From contig CAWHBZ010000010.1 of NCBI GenBank assembly GCA_963827645.1, forward strand, positions 28,325 through 92,324: a DNA stretch of 64,000 nucleotides. The letters run 5' to 3'. The position numbers and the translations under genes are program-made. Below, in pieces: positions 5,176 to 45,096 of the stretch (position 1 is the first letter of the stretch; each line of letters starts with the position of its first letter). Origin of the DNA: an uncultured beta proteobacterium. Its GTDB lineage: Bacteria; Pseudomonadota; Gammaproteobacteria; Burkholderiales; Burkholderiaceae_C. Under the pieces are notes generated by a model, which did not search any database, was not told where the DNA came from, and saw only the letters and a program-made list of their open reading frames with translations.

Positions 5176-6690
<1,515 letters not shown>

Positions 6691-6746: not shown

Positions 6747-6776
6747 TGCGCCCAGCACCACTCCGGTGTGCGACCC

Positions 6777-7450
6777 ATGGCCGATCCGATCCCCCTGCAC
6801 GGCACCTCGATGCACGACGGCGTGGCGGCGCGGCTGCGCGCGATGGTGTTCGACGCGCGAGCTCGGCGCCCGGCGACTACATCGACGAGAAGGCGCTGGC
6901 CGCGCGCTGGCAGATCAGCCGCACGCCGCTGCGCGAGGCGCTCAAGGTGCTGGCCGCCGAAGGCCTGGTCGAGCTGGTGCCGCGGCGCGGCTGCCGCGTC
7001 ATCGAGATGACCGACGCCGACGCCGAGGCGCTGTTGCCGGTGATGGCGCTGCTCGAGGGCCGCTGCGCCTACGAGGCGGTGCGCAAGGCCAGCGACGACG
7101 ACATCGCCGAGCTGCAGGCGCCTGCACGACCAGCTCGAGCGCCACGCCGCCGCGCACGCACATCGACGGCTACTACCGCGCCAACCACGCCTTCCACAGC
7201 CGCGTGCAGGCGCTGGCCGACAACCGCTGGCTCGACCGCGTGACCGGCGACCTGCGCAAGTTCGTGCGCCTGTGGCGCGGCCGGCAGCTCGCGCTGCCCG
7301 GGCGCATCGACGCCTCGATCAACGAGCACCGCGTGCTGATCGACGCCATCGAGCAGCGCGACGCGGTGCGCGCCGAACGCGCGATGCACGACCACCTGAT
7401 GGCGCAGCTGGCCGCGCTGAAGGCGCTGCAACGCCAGCTGCGCAAGCGCC
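6777..7450 (+). CDS. GntR-family transcriptional regulator with FCD domain (MatR-like), frameshifted, 3' end approximate
   Basis: MADPIPLHGTSMHDGVAARLRAMVFD.. then GDYIDEKALAARWQISRTPLREALKVLAAEGLVELVPRRGCRV (HTH). FCD-like ..HIDGYYRANHAFHSRVQALADNRWLDRVTGDLRKF..INEHRVLIDAIEQRD. Confidence 0.7.
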
Positions 7451-7469
7451 GCAGCGCAGCGGCGCCGTG

Positions 7470-8814
7470 CGGCGGCGCGCAGCGGCCGGAGGCCGCCGTG
7501 CTGGCTGAGCTGAAACGCAAGGCCGCAGGGCCTGCGCCAGGACCACGCGCTGCGCGGCCTGCTCGCCGAATGCAGGCGCCTGCTGTCCGAGCGCGGCGAG
7601 GCCAACGGCCCGGCGATCGCGCCGGGCATCGTCGAGCGCATCGAGGCGCTGGCCGACGACCAGCCGCTGGCGCTTCTTCGACCACCTGGCGCGCGACTTC
7701 AGCCCCGACCCCGAGGCGGTGCTGGCCAGCGCGCAGGCCTATGCGCGAGCAGCCCGGCGCCGAGCAGCTGATGCGCCTGACGCACGCCACCGAGCCGCCG
7801 CGGCAGGAGCTGTTTCGACGGCTCAACCGCACGCCGGGCGGCACCGCGGCGATCGTGCGCCTGCGCCGCGCGCTGCTCGAGCGGCTGCCGAAGCAACCCG
7901 CAGCTGCAGGCGGTGGAGGCCGACCTGCTGCACCTGCTGTCGAGCTGGTTCAACGCCGGCTTCCTGCAGATGCGCCGCGTCGACTGGAACTCGCCGGCGC
8001 AACTGCTCGAGCAGATCATCCGCCACGAGGCGGTGCACGAGATCGACGGCTGGGACGACCTGCGCCGCCGCCTGCAGCCCGACCGCCGCTGCTTTGCCTT
8101 CTTCCACCCGCAACTGCCCGACGAGCCGCTGATCTTCGTCGAGGTGGCGCTGGTGCGGCGAGATGGCCGGGTGCCATCGCGCCGCTGATCGACAAGAAGT
8201 CGCACGCCGCTGGCCAGCGACCACTTCAAGGTCGCGGTGTTCTATTCGATCAGCAACTGCCAGCCCGGGCTGCGCAACGTGTCGCTCGGCAACTTCCTGA
8301 TCAAGCGCGTGGCCGACGAGCTCAAGCGCGAGCTGCCGCAGCTGAAGACCTTCTGCACGCTGTCGCCGATCCCGACGCTGGTGCCGTGGCTGGCGCGCCT
8401 GCAACGGCTCGACGCGCTGCCCGGCGTCAAGGCGCAGCAGGCCGAGCGCGCGCTGCAATCGCTCGCCGCTGCTGCGCAAGGCGTGCGGCGACGACCTCGC
8501 CGGCCTCACGCACGCCAACACGCTGCACGCGATGCCGACGCGCCGCGCACCAGGCGCTGTGGCGGCTGGCCGCGCTGTACCTGGTGCACGCGTCGCCGAC
8601 GCCGCAGGGCGACCCGGTGGCGCGTTTCCACCTCGACAACGGCGCGCGGCTGGAGCGCCTGAACGCCAGCGCCAACCTGTCGGCCAAGGGCCTCAAGCAG
8701 TCGGCCGGCCTGATGGTCAACTACCTGTACGACCTGTCGCGCATCGAGACTTGCCACGATCGATTCGTGCACGGCCGGGTGGTACATTCGCGCGCCCTTT
8801 CGGCGCTGCTGTAG
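7470..8814 (+). CDS. matA: malonyl-CoA decarboxylase (MatA/MCD), frameshifted, 5' end approximate
   Basis: ..LLSERGEANGPAIA..IEALADDQ.., LLHLLSSWFNAGFLQMRRVDWNSPAQLLEQIIRHEAVHEIDGWDDLRRRL, MFYSISNCQPGLRNVSLGNFLIKRVADELKRELPQLKTFCTLSPIP, and C-terminal ..VARFHLDNGARLERLNASANLSAKGLKQSAGLMVNYLYDLSRIE.. ending at 8814. Confidence 0.8.
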
Positions 8815-8861: not shown

Positions 8862-9854
8862 ATGACCCCCATTTATCGACCCTCGCGCCGCGTGGTGCTG
8901 CGCGCCGCTGCCGCGGTGGCCGCGCTGGGCAGCGGCGCCGTCAAGGCGCAGGCGTGGCCTAACAAGCCCGTCACGCTGATCGTGCCGTTCCCCGCCGGCG
9001 GCGGCACCGACGCCTTCGCGCGGCCGCTGACCGCGATGCTGAGCAAGAACCTCGGCCGCCAGGTGATCATCGACAACAAGGGCGGCGCCGGCGGCACGGT
9101 GGGCGCCGTCGCTGGCCTCGCGCGCCGCGCCCGACGGCTACACCTTCTTCATGGGCGCCGTGCACCACACGATCGCGCCGTCGATGTACGCCAAGCTCGA
9201 CTACAACATCGAGACCGATTTCGTGCCGGTGGGGCTGGTGTCGAGCGTGCCGCAGGTGATCGTGGTGCACCCGCAGCGCGTGCCGGTGAAGGACCTGAAG
9301 GAGTTTCTCGAGCTACGTGCGCAAGAACCCGGGCAAGCTCAACTACGGCTCGGCCGGCAACGGCACGTCGCACCACCTGGCCGGCGAGCTGTTCAAGCTG
9401 CAGACCAAGACCTTCATCACCCACATCCCGTACCGCGGCGCCGGCCCGGCGCTGCAGGACCTGATCGCCGGCCAGGTCGACATGATGTTCGACGGCATGG
9501 GCTCTTCGTCCGCGCACATCAGGGCCGGCCGCATCAAGGCGCTGGCGGTGGCCGTCGCAAAAGCGCGCACCGGGCTTCGCCGACCTGCCCACCAGCGTCG
9601 AGGCCGGCGGCCCCGACTACCAGGTGTCCACCTGGTACGGCATCTGGGCGCCCAAGGGCACGCCCAAGGAGATCGGCGACCAGTTGCAAGCCGAGATGAA
9701 GAAGGCGTTCGCCGCCGACGAGATCAAGAGCCAGTGGAACGGCATGGGCGCCGAGATACCCAACATCTTCGGCGCCGAGTTCGGCAGGTTCGTCAGCAGC
9801 GAGGTCAAGCGCTGGGCCGAAGTGGTGAAGGCATCGGGCGCGAAGCTGGATTGA
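8862..9854 (+). CDS. Bug-family (TctC-like) tripartite tricarboxylate transporter substrate-binding protein, frameshifted
   Basis: MTPIYRPSRRVVLRAAAAVAALGSGAVKAQAWPNKPVTLIVPFPAGGGTDAFARPLTAMLSKNLGRQVIIDNKGGAGGTVGA.. then ..KLNYGSAGNGTSHHLAGELFKLQTKTFITHIPYRGAGPALQDLIAGQVDMMFDG.. then ..STWYGIWAPKGTPKEIGDQL..FVSSEVKRWAEVVKASGAKLD*. Confidence 0.8.
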
Positions 9855-9908
9855 CGTGTCGCTGCGGCGGGATGGCTGACGGCATGCGTTGCCACTGCTC
9901 TTGCGCAA

Positions 9909-10436
9909 GGCAAAGCCGCGGGCGGGTATGCGCCGGCGCTCGAATGCGGCAGCCCTTCGCTGCGCGAAGGGTCCCCTGCGGTACTCGGTCTCATGGCCCG
10001 TCGCGAAACTCGCTTCGCTCACTTCGTTCGCTGCGCTCGAACAATCGCGACGAGTCAGATCACGAAGCGCGCGCTGCGCGCGCGGCCACGAGCCCTGCGT
10101 TCCTCGGCGCCGCATATGTCGCTGCCGTCGCACACCCACCCACGGCTTTGCCGGCACCACCGTGGCATGTCGTCGAACAGCACGAGCGTTGCTGCGCGGT
10201 GGGCGGTACCCGGTGGGGGCGACTTGTGGGGCGGCGAGAAGCGCAGGTTCGGGGTCGGCACGCGCGCAGCGCGTGCTTCCACTTCTGACTCGCGGCGATT
10301 GTCCGAGCGCAACGACCGCAGTGAGTGAAGCGAGTTTCGCCGCGCGACCCCGAACCGAGCATCGCAGCGGAGTCGGCCTGCAGGGCCGACCGCCACAGTA
10401 GGAGCCCCTGCCGGGTACCGCCCGCCGCGCCGCGCC
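9909..10436. mobile_element. MITE-like palindromic repeat element, copy A (~528 bp), no transposase
   Basis: About 90% identical and colinear with 42843..43380. Long internal inverted arms at 10002..10058 and 10286..10345 (cgcgaaactcgcttcgctcacttcg... pairs with ...cgcagtgagtgaagcgagtttcgccgcg). Only spurious ORFs cross it. Confidence 0.7.
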
Positions 10437-10453
10437 TGCAAACTCAGCATGCA

Positions 10454-11998
10454 ATGACCAACGCCAACGTCTTCGCCGCGCTGCGCGCCGCGTTCCCGGC
10501 CGACCTCGATGCGGTGGCGATCGAAACCGCCGACGGGCCCGGCGCGCCGCTGTTCTACACCTGGCGCGACCTCGAGCGCGGCAGCGCGATGCTGGCCAAC
10601 GTGTTCGCTTCGCTGGCGTTGCCGGCCGGGGCGCGAGTCGCGGTGCAGGTCGACAAGAGTGTCGAGGCGCTTGATGCTGTACCTGGCGGTGCAGCGCGCG
10701 GGGCTGGTGTACCTGCCGCTGAACAACGCCTACCAGCAGGCCGAGATCGAATACTTCATCGGCGATGCCGAGCCGGCGGTGGTGGTGTGCGCGCCGAAGG
10801 ACTTCACCTGGATCTCGCGACTCGCATTCCGGCGCGGCACGAAGAACGTGTTCACGCTCGGTGACGACCGCACCGGCAGCCTGCTCGAGCGCGCCGCGTG
10901 GATGAGCGACGCGCACACGCCGGCGATGAGCAACGCCGACGATCTGGCGGCGATCCTCTACACCAGCGGCACCACCGGGCGCAGCAAGGGCGCGATGCTG
11001 ACGCACGGCAACCTGGTGTCCAACGCGCGCGTGCTGAAAGACTACTGGGGTTGGCAGGCCGGCGACGTGCTGATCCACGCGCTGCCGATCTTCCACGTGC
11101 ACGGCCTGTTCGTCGCCTCGCATGGCGCGCTGCTCAACGGCAGCAGGATGGTCTGGTTCTCGCGCTTCGACCCCAAGGCCACGGTCGCGCGCTTTGCCGA
11201 GGCCACCGTGTTCATGGGCGTGCCGACGCTGTACACGCGCCTGCTGGCCGAGCCCGCCCTCACGCGCGAGGCCTGCGCGCACATGCGCCTGTTCATCTCG
11301 GGTTCGGCGCCGCTGCAGGTGGAGACCTTCGACGCCTGGCGTGAGCGCACCGGCCACACCCTTCTCGAGCGCTACGGCATGAGCGAGACCGTGATGCTGA
11401 CCAGCAACCCGTATCGCGAGCAGCGATGGCGAACGCCGCCGCGGCACGGTGGGCTTCCCGTTGCCCGGCGTGCAGGTGCGCGTGCGCGACGACGCCGGCG
11501 CAGCCGTGCCCGGCCGGCGAGATCGGCGGCATCGAGGTCAAGGGACCCAACGTCTTCGCCGGCTACTGGCGCATGCCGGAGAAGACCCAGGAAGAGTTCA
11601 CCGCCGACGGCTGGTTCAAGACCGGCGACGTCGGCAAGATCGACGCCCTCGGCTACGTCACGATCGTGGGCCGCAGCAAGGACCTGGTGATCACCGGCGG
11701 CTACAACGTCTACCCCGCCGAGGTCGAAGGCTTCATCAACGAGCTGCCCGGCGTCGCGGAGTCGGCGGTGGTGGGCCTGCCGCATCCCGACTTCGGCGAA
11801 GGCGTGGTCGCGATGGTGGTGCCCAAGCCGGGCAGCGAGCTCGACGGCGCGGCGATCGTCGACGCGCTGAAGGGCCGCATCGCCAATTTCAAGGTGCCCA
11901 AGCAGGTGTTCGTCGTCGGCGAGCTGCCGCGCAACACGATGGGCAAGGTGCAGAAGAACCTGCTGCGCCAGCAGCACCAGGGTTTGTTTGGCGGCTGA
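10454..11998 (+). CDS. matB: malonyl-CoA synthetase MatB, frameshifted
   Basis: Near-colinear with rhizobial MatB: MTNANVFAALRAAFP.., AVQVDKSVEAL, AILYTSGTTGRSKGAMLTHGNLVSNA, IHALPIFHVHGLFVA, LFISGSAPLQVETF, IEVKGPNVFAGYWRMPEKTQEEFTADGWFKTGDVG, and ..PRNTMGKVQKNLLRQQHQGLFGG* ending at 11998. Confidence 0.9.
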
Positions 11999-27970: not shown

Positions 27971-28742
27971 CTATTGCGCGAGATAGCCGCCGTCCACCGC
28001 CAGCACATGCCCGGTGATCATCGCCGCCGCCGGGCTGGCGAGGAACAACACGGCCGATGCCACTTCGTGCGGCTCGGCCAGCCGGCCGAGCGGCGTGACG
28101 CTGCGGATGCGCGCCATCAGCTCGGGCGAATCCTGCAATTGGCCGATGAAGCCGGTCTTGGTCCAGCTCGGCGCCACCGCGTTGACGCGGATGCCGCGCG
28201 ACGCCCACTCCACCGCCAGCGCGCGCGTCATCGTGACCAGCCCGCCCTTGGTGACGTGGTACGAGATGTTGGGGTACAGGCCACCGCCCGACAGGCCCAT
28301 GATCGATGCCGTGTTGACGATGCTGCCGCCGCTCGCGGGCATGTGACGCGCCGCTGTGCGCGCGCACACGAACGCAGCCGTCAGGTTGACCGCCACCACG
28401 GCATCCCACTCGGCCAGCGGCAACTCCAGCGAGGCCTTGCGGATCGCGCGGCCGGCGTTGTTGACCAGCACGTCGATGCGCCCGTGTTCGGCCGCGATGG
28501 CGGCGAACATGCGTTCGACGGCCGCTTCATCGGTGACGTCGAGCGTGTGCACCTGCGCGCTGCGGCAGTTGCGCCCGCGCCGCCTGCAACGCCGCGGCAT
28601 CACGATCGAGCAGCACCACCAACGCGCCGGCCTCGGCCATCAACGTGGCGCAGGCCAGCCCGATGCCCTGCGCGCCGCCGGTGATCGCGGCCACACGATC
28701 GTCGAGGCGAAATGCGCGCAGCCCGGCGGCGGACGCCGTCAC
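27971..28742 (-). CDS. SDR-family oxidoreductase (short-chain dehydrogenase), one frameshift
   Basis: N-terminal ..RLDDRVAAITGGAQGIGLACATLMAEAGALVVLLD.. (Rossmann fold). ..IDVLVNNAGRA.. ..NTASIMGLSGGGLYPNISYHVTKGGLVTMTRALAVEWASRGIRVNAVAPSW.. ..ITGHVLAVDGGYLAQ*. GTG start overlaps the upstream stop (GTGA). Confidence 0.8.
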
Positions 28743-32873: not shown

Positions 32874-33705
32874 CTATCGCTTGATCTGCGTGAAGCGGCG
32901 CGTCGTCTCGGTCAGCGCCACCTCGGTGGGCAGCCGCTCCATCGAGCTCGCGCCGTAGAAGCCGTGGCAATCAGGGCAGCGCGCGAGGATGAAGCTCGCG
33001 TCCTGCGGCGTGGCGATCGGCCCGCCGTGGCACAGCACGATCACATCGGATCTCACCGCCTTGGCGGCCGCCGCGTAGGCGTTGATCGGCGCCACGCAAT
33101 CGGCCAGCTTCAGTGCCGTCGCGGCGCCGATGGCGCCGCCGGTGGTCAGGCCCATGTGCGCGACGATGACGTCGGCGCCGGCCCGGGCCATGTCGCGCGC
33201 CTCCTGCTCGCTGAAGACATAGGGCGTGGTCAGCAGGTCCAGCTGCGTGCGCACGCGCGATCAGCTCGACCTCCAGGCCGTAGCCCATGCCGGTTTCTTC
33301 GAGGTTGGCGCGGAAGGTGCCGTCGATCAGGCCGACGGTCGGGAAGTTCTGGATGCCCGAGAAGCCGAGCGCGATCAGCCGCTGCAGCAACTCGTCGGCA
33401 ATCATGAACGGGTCGGTGCCGTTGACGCCGGCGAGCACCGGCGTGGATTTGACCACCGGCAGCACCTCGTGCGCCATCTCGCAGACGATGTCGTTGGCGT
33501 TGCCGTAGGCCAGCAATCCGGCCAGCGAGCCGCGCCCGGCCATGCGGTAGCGGCCCGAGTTGTAGATGACGATCAGGTCGATGCCGCCGGCCTCTTCGCA
33601 CTTGGCCGACAGGCCGGTGCCGGCGCCGCCACCGATGATCGGGGTGCCGGCGGCGATCTTGCGGCGCAAGCGGTCGAGGATGGTCTGGCGGGCGATGCGG
33701 GGCAT
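32874..33705 (-). CDS. phosphoenolpyruvate-hydrolase-like TIM-barrel protein (Tm-1 C-terminal-domain homologue), one frameshift
   Basis: [83 protein letters not shown].. then C-terminal ..[26 protein letters not shown]... Confidence 0.7.
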
Positions 33706-40203: not shown

Positions 40204-41490
40204 TCACGCGGCGCGCTTCCCCAGGCCCGCTCGGCCGCGATGTCGGGCTGCTTGGCGAACACGCCGTCCTTCATCACCGCGAGCAAACGTTTCGGGTCGC
40301 GCAGGATCGCGAGGTTGGCCATCGGGTCGCCATCGACCAGCAGCAGGTCGGCGAGGTAAGCCTTCCTTGATCTGCCCCAGCTCGCCCGGCTTCATCATGA
40401 TCTGGCCGCCGTACAGCGTGGCGCAGCGGATCGCCTCGCCCGGCGTGAAGCCCAGGTACTTGACGAAGAACTCGAGGTCGCGCGCGTTCTGGCAGTGCGG
40501 CGTCATCGCGAAGCCGTAGTCACCGCCGAACAGGATGCGCACGCCGCGCTTGTGCATCGCCTTCAGCGATTCGACGGCGTGATCCCACTCGTGCTGGTAG
40601 CCCATGGCCACCGCCTGGGCGTGCGTGACGCCCCACTGCTCGGCCTCGTGCAGCATCGCGTACAGGATCGCGATGCCCGGCGCGACGAACACGCGGTCGC
40701 GCGCGGCTTCGAGCATGTCGAGCGTCTCGTCGTCGGTGTAGCTGGCGTGGTAGATCACGTCGATGCCGTGGCGCAGCGCCTGCTTGACGCTGGCCGCCGA
40801 GCGCGCGTGCGCGGTGCCGCGCTTGCCGCGCATGCGCACCTCTTCCATCGCGGCGGCCACCTCGGCATCGGTCATCCAGTTGGTGTCGGCCGGCGACTGC
40901 GGCGTGAAGTTGTCGCCCGACAGGTTGAGCTTGATCGAATCGACGCCGTACTTGAGAAACAGGCGCACGGCCTTGCGCATCTCTTCGGCGCCGCTGACGT
41001 TGACGCCGAAGCTGAACTCGGGAAACGGCAGGTGCGGCAACGTCTCGTCGCCGAGCGCCCCCAGCACCGTGATCTCCTGGCTGGCGGCGAGGTAACGCGG
41101 GCCCGGGATCTGCCCGGCATCGATGGCGTTGCGGATCACCACGTCGAGCCGCGGCTTGGCGCACGCGGCGCCGACGCACGACGTGAAGCCCGCTTCCAGA
41201 TAGCGCCTGGCGACCTTGGCGCACCACAACACGTGCTCTTCGAGCGGCATCGTCTGGATGCCGGCCAGCGTGGCCGCGTCGTTCCACGAGAAGTGCGTGT
41301 GGGCCTCGCACATGCCGGGCATCAGCGTGGCGCCGGCGCCGTCGATGATCGTGGCACCGGCCGGCGAGATCGCCGCGTTGCTGCGCCCGACCGCCTTGAT
41401 GCGGTTGCCCTGCACCAGCACGCTGCCGGGCACCGGGTTGCCGCCGCTGCCGTCGAGGATGCGCACGTTGGTGAACAGCGTATTGGCCAT
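40204..41490 (-). CDS. amidohydrolase-family metallo-hydrolase (paralogue 1), C-terminal frameshift
   Basis: MANTLFTNVRILDGSGGNPVPGSVLVQGNRIKAVG..IDGAGATLMPGMCEAHTHFSWND..PRLDVVIRNAIDAGQIPGPRYLAAS.. About 55% identical to the next gene. Confidence 0.8.
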   Translation of the reverse strand: MANTLFTNVRILDGSGGNPVPGSVLVQGNRIKAVGRSNAAISPAGATIIDGAGATLMPGMCEAHTHFSWNDAATLAGIQTMPLEEHVLWCAKVARRYLEAGFTSCVGAACAKPRLDVVIRNAIDAGQIPGPRYLAASQEITVLGALGDETLPHLPFPEFSFGVNVSGAEEMRKAVRLFLKYGVDSIKLNLSGDNFTPQSPADTNWMTDAEVAAAMEEVRMRGKRGTAHARSAASVKQALRHGIDVIYHASYTDDETLDMLEAARDRVFVAPGIAILYAMLHEAEQWGVTHAQAVAMGYQHEWDHAVESLKAMHKRGVRILFGGDYGFAMTPHCQNARDLEFFVKYLGFTPGEAIRCATLYGGQIMMKPGELGQIKEGLPRRPAAGRWRPDGQPRDPARPETFARGDEGRRVRQAARHRGRAGLGKRAA

Positions 41491-41500
41491 CGTCGTCTCC

Positions 41501-42802
41501 TCAGGCGGCCCAGCGTGTAGCCGTTGTCGTGCGTGACGCGGCGCGCACCGGCGGCGCGCGGTGGAACTCGCCGTCCTTCATCACCGCGAGGATGCGGTTC
41601 TTGTCCTGCAGCACCGTGATGTCGGCCAGCGGGTCGCCATCGATCAGCAGGATGTCGGCCAGGCAGCCTTCGCGGATGTAGCCGAGCTGCTTGCCCATCT
41701 TCATCATCGGCCCGCCCCACGCGGTGGCCGACAGCAGCGCCTCCATCGTGCTCATGCCGACGTGCTTGACGAAGTACTCCAGGTCCTTCGCATTGGTGCC
41801 GTGCGGCGTCCACGCGAAGCCGTAGTCGCCGCCGGGCAGGATGCGGATGCCGCGCTTGCGCATCGCCTTCATGCTCTCGATCGCGCATTCGAGCTCGCGG
41901 TGGTAGCCCATCTTGCGCGTCACTTCGGGCGTGAGGCCCCACTGCGACGCGTGGTGGCAGGTGTTGATCAGCCACGCCAGGCCGGGGGCGACGAAGTGCT
42001 CGAACTTGTGCTGCTCCAGCAGGTCGAGCGCCTCCTCGTCGGCGAAGCTGGCGTGGTAGATCACCTCGATGCCCTGCTTGACGCATTGCTTGATCGACCA
42101 GGTCGAGCGCGCGTGCGCGGCAACGCGCTTGCCCCAGGCCTTGGCCTCCTGCACGCAGACGGTGATCTCCTCTTCGGTGAACTGGCTGGCCTCGCTGGGC
42201 ATGCCGGTGATCGATTCGCCGGACAGGTTGATCTTCAGCGTGTCGACCCCGTACTTGGCGAACATGCGCACGCAGCGCCGCATCTCGTGCGGGCCGCTGA
42301 CGATGGCGCCGAATGCGAACTCGGGTTGCGGCAGATGCGGCTGCGTGGTGTCGCCCAGGCCGCCGGGCACCGTGATCTCCTGGCTCGCCGCCAGGTATCG
42401 CGGCCCGATGATGGTGCCGTCGTTGATCGCGTTGCGGATCACCACGTCGAGCCGCGGCTTGGCGGCCGCGGCGCCGACGCAGCTGGTCCAGCCCATGTCG
42501 AGGTAGCGCTTGGCGACCTCGGCGCACCACAGGATGTGCTCTTCCGGCGGCATGCGCTGGATCGCATCGAGGCTCGGCTGGTCGTTCCACGAGAAGTGCG
42601 TGTGCGCCTCGACCATGCCGGGCATCAGGAAGGCGCCGGCGCCGTCGATCATCTGCGCGCCGGCGATCGGCTGGCTGCGCTGGCCATAGCCGGTCTTGAC
42701 GACGCGGCTGATCTTGTTGCCCTGCACCAGCACGTCGCCGGTGAACGGCGCTTCGCCACCGCCGTCGAAGACCCGCACGTTGGTGAAGAGAACGTCGGCC
42801 AT
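41501..42802 (-). CDS. amidohydrolase-family metallo-hydrolase (paralogue 2, intact)
   Basis: MADVLFTNVRVFDGGGEAPFTGDVLVQGNKISRVV..IDGAGAFLMPGMVEAHTHFSWND..PRLDVVIRNAINDGTIIGPRYLAAS..HARS..ILPGGDYGF... Confidence 0.85.
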   Translation of the reverse strand: MADVLFTNVRVFDGGGEAPFTGDVLVQGNKISRVVKTGYGQRSQPIAGAQMIDGAGAFLMPGMVEAHTHFSWNDQPSLDAIQRMPPEEHILWCAEVAKRYLDMGWTSCVGAAAAKPRLDVVIRNAINDGTIIGPRYLAASQEITVPGGLGDTTQPHLPQPEFAFGAIVSGPHEMRRCVRMFAKYGVDTLKINLSGESITGMPSEASQFTEEEITVCVQEAKAWGKRVAAHARSTWSIKQCVKQGIEVIYHASFADEEALDLLEQHKFEHFVAPGLAWLINTCHHASQWGLTPEVTRKMGYHRELECAIESMKAMRKRGIRILPGGDYGFAWTPHGTNAKDLEYFVKHVGMSTMEALLSATAWGGPMMKMGKQLGYIREGCLADILLIDGDPLADITVLQDKNRILAVMKDGEFHRAPPVRAASRTTTATRWAA

Positions 42803-42842
42803 GTCAGTTGCTCCTGTCCTGTGCACTGCTGAGACCGAGCGG

Positions 42843-43380
42843 GGCAAAGCCGCGGGCGGGTATGCGCCGGCGCTCGAATGCGGCAGCCCCTCGCTGCGCG
42901 ACGGGTGCCCTGCGCTGCTCGGTCTCGTGGCCCGCCGAGAAACTCGCTATCGCTCGCTTCGGTCGCTGCGCTCAGACAATCTCGGCGAGTCAGAGGACGA
43001 AGCGCGCGCTGCGCGCGCGCGGCCACGAAGCTCCTGCGCTCGCTCGGCGCCGCACGATGTCGCTGCCGTCGCACACCCACCCACGGCTTTGCCGGCACCA
43101 CCGTGGCATGCGTCGTCGAACAGCAACGAGCGTTGCTGCGCGGTGGGCGGTGCCCGGTGGGGGCGACTTGTGGGGCGGCGAGAAGCGCAGGGCCGGGGTC
43201 GGCGCGCGCGAGCGCGCGCTTCCACTTCTGACTCGCGGCGATTGTCCGAGCGGAACGACCGCAGGGAGTGAAGCGAGTTTCGCCGCGCGACCCCGGCCCG
43301 AGCATCGCAGCGGAGTCGGCCTGCAAGGCCGACCGCCACAGTCAGGAGCCCCTGCCGGGTACCGCCCGCCGCGCCGCGCC
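42843..43380. mobile_element. MITE-like palindromic repeat element, copy B (~538 bp)
   Basis: Colinear and ~90% identical with 9909..10436 in the same orientation. Sits between the amidohydrolase start and the alpha/beta-hydrolase stop. Confidence 0.7.
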
Positions 43381-43408
43381 CACACCTCGCGCAAAGAGAA
43401 CATCCACA

Positions 43409-44206
43409 TCACCGCTGCGCCTCCAAGAACCCGCGCAACTCGCGCGCGCACTCCTCGGGCCGCTCCACCGGCGTCCAGTGGCCGCAGCTGCGGCAGCACC
43501 ACGACGCGCACCGAGCGCGCGCGGTGCAGCTTCTCGGCCATCGCGCGCACCGCCTGCGGCGGCGCGACGACGTCTTCGTCGCCGGTGACCAGCAGCACCG
43601 GCGCCTCGATCTGTTCCACCGCCGCTGCCGGCGCATCGGCCAGCGCGAAGCAGCTGCGCGCATAGCCATCGGGGTCCTGCCGCATCAGGCTCTCGCGCAC
43701 GAAGGCCACCGCCAGCGGCAGCCGCGTGCGGGTGTCGGCCGAGATCGACGCGTTGAGCAGCGCCAGCGTGATCTCGTGCATGCCGGCCGCGCCCTCGTGC
43801 TTCGCCTTCTCTCCGCGCGCGCGGATCGCGCTGCGCGCCGCATCGGGCGGCACGATCAGCGGGCCGAACAGCGCCAGGCTCGCCACCAGCTTGGGCGCGG
43901 CCACCGCCACGTGCTGCAGCACGATGTTGCCCATCGAGTGGCCGACCATGTGGGCGCGGCTGACGTTCAAGCCGCGCGCACGTCGACATCACGCAGCTCG
44001 GCATAACGCGCCATCGACAGCGGCCCCTCGGCGCGGTGCGAGCGGCCGCTGCCGGGCAGATCGATGCGCACCACGCGGTGCCGCGCCAGCGCCGGCATCA
44101 GCGGCGTGAAGGTGTTGGAGCTGCCGCCCAGCCCGTGCACGCAGACGACAGCAGGCCCCTCGCCTTCGTCTTCGACCGCGCAACGCTCGATGAATGTCAA
44201 TGCCAT
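43409..44206 (-). CDS. alpha/beta-fold hydrolase, multiple frameshifts
   Basis: MALTFIERCAVEDEGEGPAVVCVHGLGGSSNTFTPLMPALARHRVVRIDLPGSGRS.., nucleophile elbow in ..AHMVGHSMGNIVLQHVA.., C-terminal ..CGHWTPVERPEECARELRGFLEAQR*. Confidence 0.75.
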
Positions 44207-44214
44207 GGCGTTGC

Positions 44215-45096
44215 CTATTCGAACCGGTTCTCGATCGCCCCGATGCCGTCGATCTCGATGCGCACCACGTCGCCCGGGCCCAGCCATTTTGGTGGCGAGA
44301 AACCCATGCCGACGCCGGCCGGCGTGCCGGTGGCGATGATGTCGCCGGGCAGCAGCGTGATGCCGCGCGACAGGGTCTCGATCAGCGTCGGGATGTCGAA
44401 GATCATGTCGCGCGTCATTGCGCTCTGCCGCAGCTCGGGCGCGCCGCCGGCCGGCGTGACCCAGCCGCGCACGCGCGTGTCGCGGCCGTCGAGCTCGTCG
44501 GCGGTCACGATCCATGGGCCCATCGGGCAGAAGGTGTCGCAGTTCTTGCCGAGCAGCCACTGCTGGTGGCGCACCTGCACGTCGCGCGCGCTGACATCGT
44601 TGACGATGGTGTAGCCGAGCACGTGGTCCATCGCGCGCGCCTTCGTGATGTCGCGCCCGCCGCGGCCGACGATCACCGCCAGCTCGCTCTCGTAGTCGAT
44701 CTGCTCGGAGACCGCCTTGCCCGGCAGCCGCACGGTGTCGTGCGGGCCGATCACGGTCTCCGGGAACTTGCTGAACACCATCGGCCACTGGTGCTCCTTG
44801 GGCAGGCTGTCGCGGAACACGCTGCCCGACAGCTCTTGCGCGTGCGAGTGGTAGTTGCGGCCCACGCACCACAGGTTGCGCCGCGGGCGCGGAATCGGCG
44901 CGCGCAGCGTGATCGCATCCACCGCCACCCGCGGGCCGGTGGCCGCTGGCAGCGCCTCGCCCAGCGCGAGCGCCTCGATCAAGCGCAGCGCCGCGCCGCC
45001 GGCATAGTCCACCAGCAGCGGCGTGGCCTCGCGACCATCGGCCGACACGGTGCCCACATGCTGACGGCCGCCCCAGCTCCAGCTGGCGATGCGCAT
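44215..45096 (-). CDS. fumarylacetoacetate hydrolase (FAH) family protein (intact)
   Basis: MRIASWSWGGRQHVGTVSADG.. ..NLWCVGRNYHSHAQE.. ..IDYESELAVIVGRGGRDI.. ..GYTIVNDVSARDVQ..GKNCDTFCPMGPWIVT.. ..GDIIATGTPAGVG... Confidence 0.85.
   Translation of the reverse strand: MRIASWSWGGRQHVGTVSADGREATPLLVDYAGGAALRLIEALALGEALPAATGPRVAVDAITLRAPIPRPRRNLWCVGRNYHSHAQELSGSVFRDSLPKEHQWPMVFSKFPETVIGPHDTVRLPGKAVSEQIDYESELAVIVGRGGRDITKARAMDHVLGYTIVNDVSARDVQVRHQQWLLGKNCDTFCPMGPWIVTADELDGRDTRVRGWVTPAGGAPELRQSAMTRDMIFDIPTLIETLSRGITLLPGDIIATGTPAGVGMGFSPPKWLGPGDVVRIEIDGIGAIENRFE

Follow-up and report, generated by a model that had tools for sequence, protein, structure and literature searches.

Within a 64,000-nucleotide stretch of DNA from an uncultured beta proteobacterium (assembly GCA_963827645.1, contig CAWHBZ010000010.1, forward-strand positions 28,325 to 92,324; hereafter the window), two copies of an intergenic repeat of approximately 540 bp, termed copy A and copy B, were characterized and found to belong to a dispersed family of non-coding foldback DNA. 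Copy A lies in a malonate cluster between the stop codon of a TctC/Bug-family receptor gene (9852-9854) and the ATG of a malonyl-CoA-synthetase-like gene (10454), both on the + strand, starting 47 nt past the former and ending 17 nt upstream of the latter; the cluster further encodes a GntR/FCD regulator and a malonyl-CoA decarboxylase. Copy B lies between an alpha/beta-hydrolase gene (probable stop 43409-43411) and an amidohydrolase gene (ATG 42802), both on the minus strand, and ends 33 nt from the downstream amidohydrolase start codon. This context agrees with that given in an earlier note on this DNA, which had described two colinear regions of about 90% identity. Alignment of 9809-10536 with 42743-43480 placed the onset of identity at 9909 and 42843 and its end at 10436 and 43380, with unrelated sequence in the 100-nt flanks, and the two copies were colinear and 92.6% identical over 528/539 nt by BLAST. 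A family profile and flank alignment built from 34 copies gave slightly wider limits (9902-10440 for copy A and 42835-43385 for copy B) because of a semi-conserved GAGCGA-like motif upstream of GGCAAAGCC. Both copies matched this profile as full-length elements in the same absolute orientation (copy A at 9902-10437, + strand, E 2.6e-165, with support from the 34-copy flank alignment; copy B at 42836-43381, + strand, E 1.8e-150). A 25-nt pattern conserved in all four arms, GCTCNNACAATCNCNNCGAGTCAGA, occurred four times in the window, twice per copy on opposite strands, where none was expected from shuffles.

A protein-coding reading of the element was rejected. No open reading frame (ORF) crossing copy A or B gave a credible Pfam match, 201 of the 218 indels observed relative to copy A across 32 copies were not multiples of three, and substitutions across these copies showed no codon periodicity. 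The ORFs crossing the element are artefacts, as had been proposed, and long GC-rich ORFs annotated across such regions are spurious. A derivation from rRNA, tRNA or another known RNA was likewise rejected, since a search of Rfam over the whole window at gathering thresholds gave no match and a permissive local search gave only two chance-level matches (E 5.5 and 7.5). No match to the element was found among PLSDB plasmids or IMG/VR viral contigs, arguing against a plasmid- or phage-borne element, and full-text literature searches returned no described repeat family for this clade. The novelty claimed in the earlier note is therefore upheld: the repeat family is genuine and apparently undescribed, with no entry in Rfam, in PLSDB or in the literature searched.

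Inspection of internal symmetry showed that each copy is palindromic. In copy A the 118-nt arms at 9972-10089 and 10254-10371 are 77% complementary, and two additional pairings in inverted orientation join 9909-9937 with 10124-10152 and 10191-10234 with 10390-10433. The element of approximately 540 bp consists of two foldback units of approximately 245-285 bp arranged as an inverted dimer, each unit being closed by a near-invariant inverted motif pair of approximately 30-45 bp (T1:T2 and T3:T4) and each also found alone, rather than the simple miniature inverted-repeat transposable element (MITE) of about 530 bp previously suggested. All features of copy A are given on the + strand. The left unit begins with the terminal motif T1 (9909-9937; GGCAAAGCCGCGGGCGGGTATGCGCCGGC), which is near-invariant in 33 copies, 86% complementary to T2 and the source of helices 1-2 of the consensus fold described below. 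It is followed by a small hairpin, H1 (9953-9971; CCCTTCGC-TGC-GCGAAGGG), whose variable stem is compensated such that complementarity is kept between copies, with double changes at pairs 52/69 and 58/64 in 10 and 8 copies, and then by core B (9972-10089), the left arm of the large palindrome, which carries the arm pattern at 10035-10059 and internal helices 5-10 that covary. The unit is closed by T2 (10124-10152), an inverted T1 that is also the end point of solo left units. A central junction (10153-10190), conserved and colinear in full-length copies and unpaired in the consensus fold, leads to the right unit. This opens with T3 (10191-10234; GCGCGGTGGGCGGTACCCGGTGGGGGCGAC...), an 80% inverted pair with 10390-10433, the corresponding helix 11 (T3:T4) comprising 26 pairs of which 96.7% are paired across copies. 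Core B' (10254-10371), recognized as an inverted repeat and in the family alignment, is an inverted core B and constitutes the type I cassette. The covarying stem of the adjoining hairpin H1' (10372-10390; GTCGGCC-TGCAG-GGCCGAC) differs between copies (GTCGATGC/GCATCGAC, GTCTCCGC/GCGGAGAC and others), with double changes at pairs 529/541 and 530/540 in 15 and 10 copies. The right terminal motif T4 (10390-10436; ...CCGGGTACCGCCCGCCGCGCCGCGCC), which pairs with T3, was delimited by the inverted pair, the flank alignment and the consensus fold. Copy B has the same organization in register, with a left unit at 42843-43093 (T1 42843-42871, T2 43065-43093; spacings to copy A of 32934-32941) and a right unit at 43135-43380 (T3 from 43135, T4 ending at 43380; spacing 32943-32944), both on the + strand. 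The outer ends T1 and T4 have GCCGCGGGCGG/CCGCCCGCCGC in common (11 nt at 91%), and this mirror symmetry reaches into GAGCGA/TCGC-like flanks; T1:T2 and T3:T4, the internal pairs, are stronger than this outer one.

A consensus fold calculated from 33 copies with RNAalifold consisted of two separate foldback domains, the left and right arms not being paired together. It contained 141 pairs, 51 of them with double compensatory changes; paired cells amounted to 96.3% compared with 88.5% in shuffles (0/500 as high), and the covariation score was 0.241, against 0.104 after shuffling and no more than 0.048 once the partners had been slid. Folded alone as single-stranded DNA, copy A produced one giant hairpin (-197 kcal/mol, z = -9.9), indicating that type I copies have two alternative conformations. 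A giant hairpin as the conserved structure of the family was ruled out by the two-domain consensus and by the replacement of the right core in type II copies described below. The alifold energies of the two strands were -191 and -204, and over the union of pairs G.U (183) was not in excess of A.C (260). As neither strand folds better than the other and G.U pairs are not preferred, the structure is not specific to one transcript strand, and a strand-specific RNA structure is thus unsupported. Such a strand-symmetric fold argues for DNA hairpins over a strand-specific RNA; RNA made from either strand would also fit.

These data bear on the possibility that the units are selected as RNA, either within operon transcripts, as a stabilizer of the kind represented by enterobacterial repetitive intergenic consensus (ERIC) or repetitive extragenic palindromic (REP) sequences or with a role in processing or translation, or as non-coding RNA genes. 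Strong conservation and covariation of secondary structure would accord with this, as would the position of the window copies and of 22 of 30 classified copies between co-directional genes, where they would be co-transcribed, and the short distances from the window copies to downstream start codons given above. Set against these points are the equal folding of the two strands and the arrangement of the copies: both orientations relative to transcription were represented among classified copies, confirming that orientation is not tied to transcription, and some copies occupied spacers between divergent or convergent genes. Searches of the element for sigma-70 promoter-like and intrinsic-terminator-like sites were negative, as was that of Rfam. 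Furthermore, as described below, a given site tolerates extensive internal deletion and the exchange of cassettes, close relatives lack the element at the same junction, and overall divergence is about that of third codon positions. Selection at the RNA level is accordingly regarded as quite improbable.

The window holds two copies, as the earlier note stated, whereas the family has hundreds of members elsewhere. Scanning of species-representative genomes with the arm pattern identified at least 105 stretches containing the family, and scanning of metagenomes with the T1 motif identified at least 120 further stretches, chiefly from soil and rhizosphere samples, so that the family comprises at least 200 copies. 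The genome stretches listed derive almost entirely from Burkholderiaceae/Burkholderiales metagenome-assembled genomes (MAGs), some named Ideonella or Rubrivivax. Among the matches listed, the hosts are about 20 species-level Burkholderiaceae MAGs (Ideonella/Rubrivivax-like), including Ideonella sp. H3_PRO2, and the MAG MFD05942.bin.2.95 alone carries at least 14 loci; many copies lie near contig ends. Long-read MAGs with the family include MFD05942.bin.2.95 (CAVZEK01), Ideonella sp. H3_PRO2 (JABTUC01) and MFD05567.bin.2.232 (CAVTJT01). The family is spread across genomes of an uncultured soil and freshwater Burkholderiaceae group. Three loci (L014, L056 and L058; L numbers denote loci outside the window) are exceptions by label, occurring in MAGs titled Binatia, delta-proteobacterium and Steroidobacteraceae. 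The flanks of such loci match Burkholderiaceae loci at 97-100% (e.g. L014, L007 and L058), and these are therefore probably binning contaminants rather than evidence of a wider host range.

Profile mapping yielded 33 clean full-length colinear copies from genomes and 38 from metagenomes, together with partial forms. In approximately 15 of the 33 (type II) the B' cassette is swapped for an unrelated hairpin-rich cassette with conservation of its surroundings; copies A and B are both type I. Solo left units, extending from T1 to T2 (approximately 245 bp), were present at L052, L089 and L099, and solo right units at L008, L017, L042, L057, L067, L073, L080 and L097. The latter look like independent internal deletions, since the outermost GAGCGAGGCAAAGCCG is fused to the centre at differing points. 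Minis of approximately 190-210 bp (L112 and eight metagenomic loci) keep only about positions 5-100 and about 440-548 of the profile, with variable, roughly symmetric breakpoints. The element also serves as a landing pad for other mobile DNA. At L075 (DATIFD010000562.1, MAG SMAG_U16386) an insertion sequence (IS) of the IS110 family (approximately 1.2 kb, L075:1067-2278), carrying a 325-amino-acid ORF at 1266-2243 that matches PF01548 and PF02371, interrupts the right core of a repeat copy between ...GCTTCACT and CCCTGCGG... and is the sole such IS in the examined DNA around elements. A second small repeat of approximately 70-87 bp, composed of two near-perfect hairpins (GGCCCGGCCTGCAGGCCGGGCC and GCGAGCGAGAGTCCGCAGGGACTCTCGCTCG), was observed nested inside copies of the large element at three different positions (L002:4609-4681, L095:6876-6944, L044:~360-432, L027:1700-1787, L037:~940-1026 and L047:~335-418) and does not occur in the window.

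Comparison with relatives demonstrated that the element inserted into very short intergenic spacers. At the site of copy B (site B), contigs from four relatives (L106-L109) are empty, the hydrolase stop codon being 4-11 nt from the amidohydrolase ATG, compared with 606 nt in the window; amidohydrolase homologs at this site show 86-91% amino acid identity and include that of the isolate Aquincola sp. S2. Sequence from the gene junction (27-39 nt) is present on both sides of the insert and corresponds to the hydrolase 3' end, the embedded ribosome-binding site and the first approximately 17 nt of the amidohydrolase gene, one duplicate retaining the stop codon and the other retaining AGGAG plus the ATG. 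On the minus strand, the hydrolase stop TGA (43411-43409) overlaps the degraded remains of an amidohydrolase start (ATGTGGATGTTCTCTT; 43394-43411), recognized by comparison with the empty sites L106-L109. The other half of the junction (42786-42835, minus strand) consists of ...GCACAGGACAGGAGCAACTGAC, which duplicates the 3' end of the hydrolase gene with its AGGAG, followed by the intact start ATGGCCGACGTTCTCTT; its homolog at the empty site L108 is GCACAGAGGAGCTGAACCGATGGCCAACGTGCTCTT. This duplicated junction hints at a mode of insertion that splits overlapping operon junctions with survival of both genes. At the site of copy A (site A) the GcL4-2 MAG (L111) is empty, with a 37-nt spacer, and the family is present elsewhere in GcL4-2. 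In L112 (L112:1793-1977; ERZ27256474 k141_1181883) the same site is occupied by an approximately 185-bp mini in the opposite orientation, which keeps both outer ends only and has GAACGGAT / GAACGAGGAT as its flanks. This reflects either an in situ inversion of the palindrome or two separate hits on the same spacer. L010 is a diverged empty counterpart of L049, its junctions being unreadable through divergence. Gain of the element appears relatively recent, because site B was filled after the split from the 91%-amino-acid-identity lineage and site A is empty in GcL4-2. A segmental duplication, the other origin considered in the earlier note, was rejected on account of the unrelated flanks, the hundreds of copies elsewhere and the empty sites in relatives.

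Two further observations concern the sequences flanking the repeat. At site A a possible decayed duplicate of the synthetase start was noted (9871-9886 compared with 10454-10469; GGGATGGCTGACGGCA and ATGACCAACGCCAACG); with approximately 11/17 matches it is too weak to call, and it resembles the clearer duplication at copy B. Secondly, an AGGAGCA(A)CTGAC-ATG initiation region (+ strand: CATGTCAGT...CTCCT) adjoins the left end of the repeat at three unrelated sites (copy B 42803-42835, L005:~6325-6356 and L028:~5905-5944), which could be coincidence, a common local ribosome-binding-site context or sequence carried with the element.

No regular target-site duplication (TSD) was detected over 42-44 copies. 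In a fixed register the best match rate was 0.42 compared with a background of 0.26, a difference explained by conserved flank motifs, and local repeats within 70 nt, assessed copy by copy, gave 7.8 compared with 8.1 in mismatched controls; the only flanking duplications seen were site-specific, at site B and L112. The DNA around elements (approximately 1.2 Mb) was also searched for a mobilizing partner. No T motif was found outside mapped elements in 675 kb of this DNA, and in 449 kb of metagenome DNA every copy at T1 matches was a full element, a solo unit, a partial form or a copy cut by a contig end. A probe resembling the REP-associated tyrosine transposase (RAYT), run with tblastn and an approximate query, gave no match in 779 kb plus 449 kb, an IS110 protein probe gave no further match besides L075, and no TnpA or TnpB was seen. 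The IS110 at L075 was rejected as a partner, being a single nested insertion. An IS with matching terminal inverted repeats, sought as the mobilizer, was not found in the approximately 1.2 Mb, nor was any longer element with matching ends. The absence of a partner is weak evidence, as the searched DNA only surrounds elements and a single-copy partner could lie elsewhere.

These results were weighed with respect to a classical MITE, that is, an internally deleted IS derivative moved in trans by a DDE transposase acting at terminal inverted repeats. The family is small in size, non-coding, multi-copy and has inverted termini, its site occupancy differs between species, and the minis retain just the outer ends, as if the ends sufficed; the sequences flanking the L112 mini and the duplication flanking copy B at site B are in keeping with the same interpretation. 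A MITE of this type is nevertheless difficult to reconcile with the lack of a fixed-length TSD, with the lack around the elements of a longer element sharing their ends or of T motifs beyond mapped copies, and with the location of the strongest inverted pairs internally (T1:T2 and T3:T4) rather than at T1:T4. Extensive compensatory change in the interior is not required by a DDE transposase, and the vertical persistence and genome-specific populations described below also count against it. The term MITE-like used in the earlier note holds in the broad sense and is not supported in the narrow sense, no regular TSD having been found, nor an IS with matching ends in the DNA around elements, and a classical MITE is considered unlikely.

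The fate of the element after insertion was examined by comparing copies between and within genomes. Many sites are orthologous across species, copy A matching L101 and L079 and copy B matching L029. Orthologous copies were on average 83.9% identical, and their flanking genes 88.0% identical overall and 82.6% at the most variable codon phase (BLAST); divergence of the element is therefore close to that of third codon positions and the whole element drifts at a roughly synonymous rate. Full and deleted forms coexist at orthologous sites (L103 and L008; L023 and L067 and L094). After insertion, copies are inherited vertically and decay by internal deletion to solo units and minis. Paralogs within a genome were 85.4% identical compared with 75.5% for positional orthologs. 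Wherever a paralog of a copy had been sampled, the copy was nearer to a paralog (0.87-0.93) than to its positional ortholog in eight of the nine pairs of orthologs, the exception being L088, for which the two were about equal (0.76). Copies A and B are 93% identical to each other and only 79-88% identical to their own orthologs, and the type of right-core cassette follows the genome and not the site. The T motifs were 83-94% identical in all comparisons, paralogous and orthologous. The family thus undergoes concerted evolution within genomes, which could result from gene conversion among the scattered copies or from their ongoing replacement by masters particular to each genome.

The copies might instead be immobile fossils of an ancient burst, now subject only to gene conversion and to palindrome-driven deletion and inversion, with conservation a by-product of hairpin mismatch repair. 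Orthology of most sites across species, concerted evolution, the roughly symmetric deletions, the near-neutral overall rate and the failure to find a partner enzyme in DNA around the elements would all be expected in that case. The T motifs, though, are far more conserved than the interior, which arm-to-arm conversion alone is insufficient to explain, and the filling of site B after the split from the 91% lineage, like the empty site A in the family-carrying GcL4-2, is at odds with immobility. An entirely immobile family is thus held to be distinctly unlikely.

The best explanation of these data is a family that is mobile or formerly mobile, non-autonomous and acting at the DNA level; non-coding, palindromic and multi-copy as first proposed, it would be mobilized in trans. 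That this occurs by a DNA-hairpin-based mechanism is the reading we favour, at somewhat better than an even chance. The invariant T motifs would be read by a recombinase or transposase encoded elsewhere in the genome, which would act on hairpins extruded in single-stranded DNA in the manner of RAYT on REPINs (REP doublets forming hairpins) or of the IS200/IS605 TnpA on its own ends. Such an enzyme would explain the conserved structure, the conserved end sequence and the missing regular TSD, and similarity within genomes would stem from masters particular to each genome that are still slowly copied, or from gene conversion between copies. Several points weigh against this reading. The units exceed described REPINs in length by a factor of 2.5-5, and a GTAG-type REP head was not recognized in the element; no RAYT-like, IS110 or other partner gene adjoins T motifs in the approximately 1.2 Mb searched; the 27-39-nt junction duplication at site B is not predicted by HUH-type insertion; and gene conversion, whether arm-to-arm or copy-to-copy, could account for both the compensatory change and the similarity within genomes in the absence of selection for mobility. 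In addition, all family hosts are MAGs, some of them frameshift-rich. A more specific form of the trans-mobilized hairpin reading, in which the family is a REPIN-like, vertically inherited replicator population of approximately 250-nt units served by a dedicated single-copy host recombinase that would read the four T motifs on extruded DNA hairpins and sustain the family throughout a clade of uncultured Burkholderiaceae, is put forward tentatively, as a possibility that we doubt more than we credit. If true, it would extend the long-term element-host association of the REPIN/RAYT type to a new lineage, size class and possibly enzyme family.

The window copies themselves are most likely passengers, and any effect on expression of the malonate or hydrolase operon would be a side effect of a very stable structure of approximately 540 nt near a start codon. 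Frame changes were observed in genes near the repeats (window 6766-8814, 9018-9854, 10454-11690 and 43400-44230). Pfam matches to TctC fall in four different ORFs/frames, the malonyl-CoA-synthetase-like gene begins in the frame of ORF 10325-10864 and goes on in ORF 10509-11690, pieces of the FCD regulator and the malonyl-CoA decarboxylase are fused within one ORF, and the alpha/beta-hydrolase is split across two or three frames. This suggests indel errors of a long-read MAG, or pseudogenes. Downstream of copy B on the minus strand, two amidohydrolase genes (40204-41490 and 41501-42802) are tandem paralogs with 72-87% nucleotide identity in several blocks approximately 1306 nt apart; the tandem pair is kept in relatives, where it is followed by branched-chain ABC-type permease genes (PF02653).

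Palindromic repeats of the dispersed kind mould the intergenic regions of bacteria, fragment short-read assemblies and are able to change the expression of operons, and few such families have been characterized beyond enterobacteria, pseudomonads and neisseriae. The present family is a clearly delimited example from uncultured Burkholderiaceae that combines filled and empty sites, a conserved two-domain foldback, swappable cassettes, a decay series and concerted evolution, and it could be used to study how repeats of this sort are propagated and retained over long periods. Among known systems, REPINs consist of REP doublets forming hairpins, are associated with a RAYT transposase (Bertels & Rainey 2011, PMC3116915; bioRxiv 10.1101/2021.07.10.451892), and are recognized by conserved inverted ends, a hairpin spacer in which compensatory changes are common, a position outside genes, vertical inheritance and remnants in the form of singlets (PMC3116915; bioRxiv 10.1101/2021.07.10.451892). 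Each unit described here similarly has conserved inverted ends and a less conserved hairpin spacer with frequent compensatory changes, and the family is extragenic, vertically inherited, organized in genome-specific populations, accompanied by remnant decay products and devoid of a regular TSD. It differs in that its units measure 245-285 bp, usually in an inverted dimer of approximately 540 bp, compared with approximately 100 bp for REPINs, in its multi-helix interior with swappable cassettes, and in that no RAYT was found in the DNA searched around elements.

Other families of small repeats share part of this organization. MITEs such as Correia/NEMIS and the Tn3-derived TIMEs are likewise small, non-coding and multi-copy, with inverted ends and variable occupancy; the fixed TSD and cognate IS were not found here in the DNA around elements, and the foldback dimer with four end motifs is a further difference. 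ERIC sequences, or intergenic repeat units (IRUs), are 127-bp imperfect palindromes that similarly lie in transcribed intergenic regions in either orientation and show indel size variants, but their sequence is unrelated, the present element is approximately four times longer and there is no evidence here of RNA-level selection. Palindrome-associated elements derived from IS200/IS605 (PATEs) have subterminal hairpins, lack terminal inverted repeats and TSDs and insert on the 3' side of a short target of fixed sequence. In the element described here, hairpins lie close to the two ends and no regular TSD was found. The semi-conserved GAGCGA that abuts its left end mirrors the TCGC-like motif at the right and so may belong to the element, and no TnpA or TnpB was seen in the DNA around elements. 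The bacterial interspersed mosaic elements (BIMEs) of enterobacteria, reportedly described in the work of Gilson, Bachellier and colleagues, are a specific landing site for IS1397. As in BIMEs, palindromic modules here alternate in orientation, occupy operon intergenic spacers, have a species-specific consensus and can receive an IS, in this case the IS110 nested once in L075. The two are unrelated in sequence; the present modules are far longer, and copying involves the whole 540-bp arrangement as a colinear block. The most apt description of the family is a large intergenic foldback repeat that behaves in the manner of REPIN/BIME-type elements, to which it is closer than to a transposase-deletion MITE because of its invariant ends, compensated spacer, vertical persistence and genome-specific populations.

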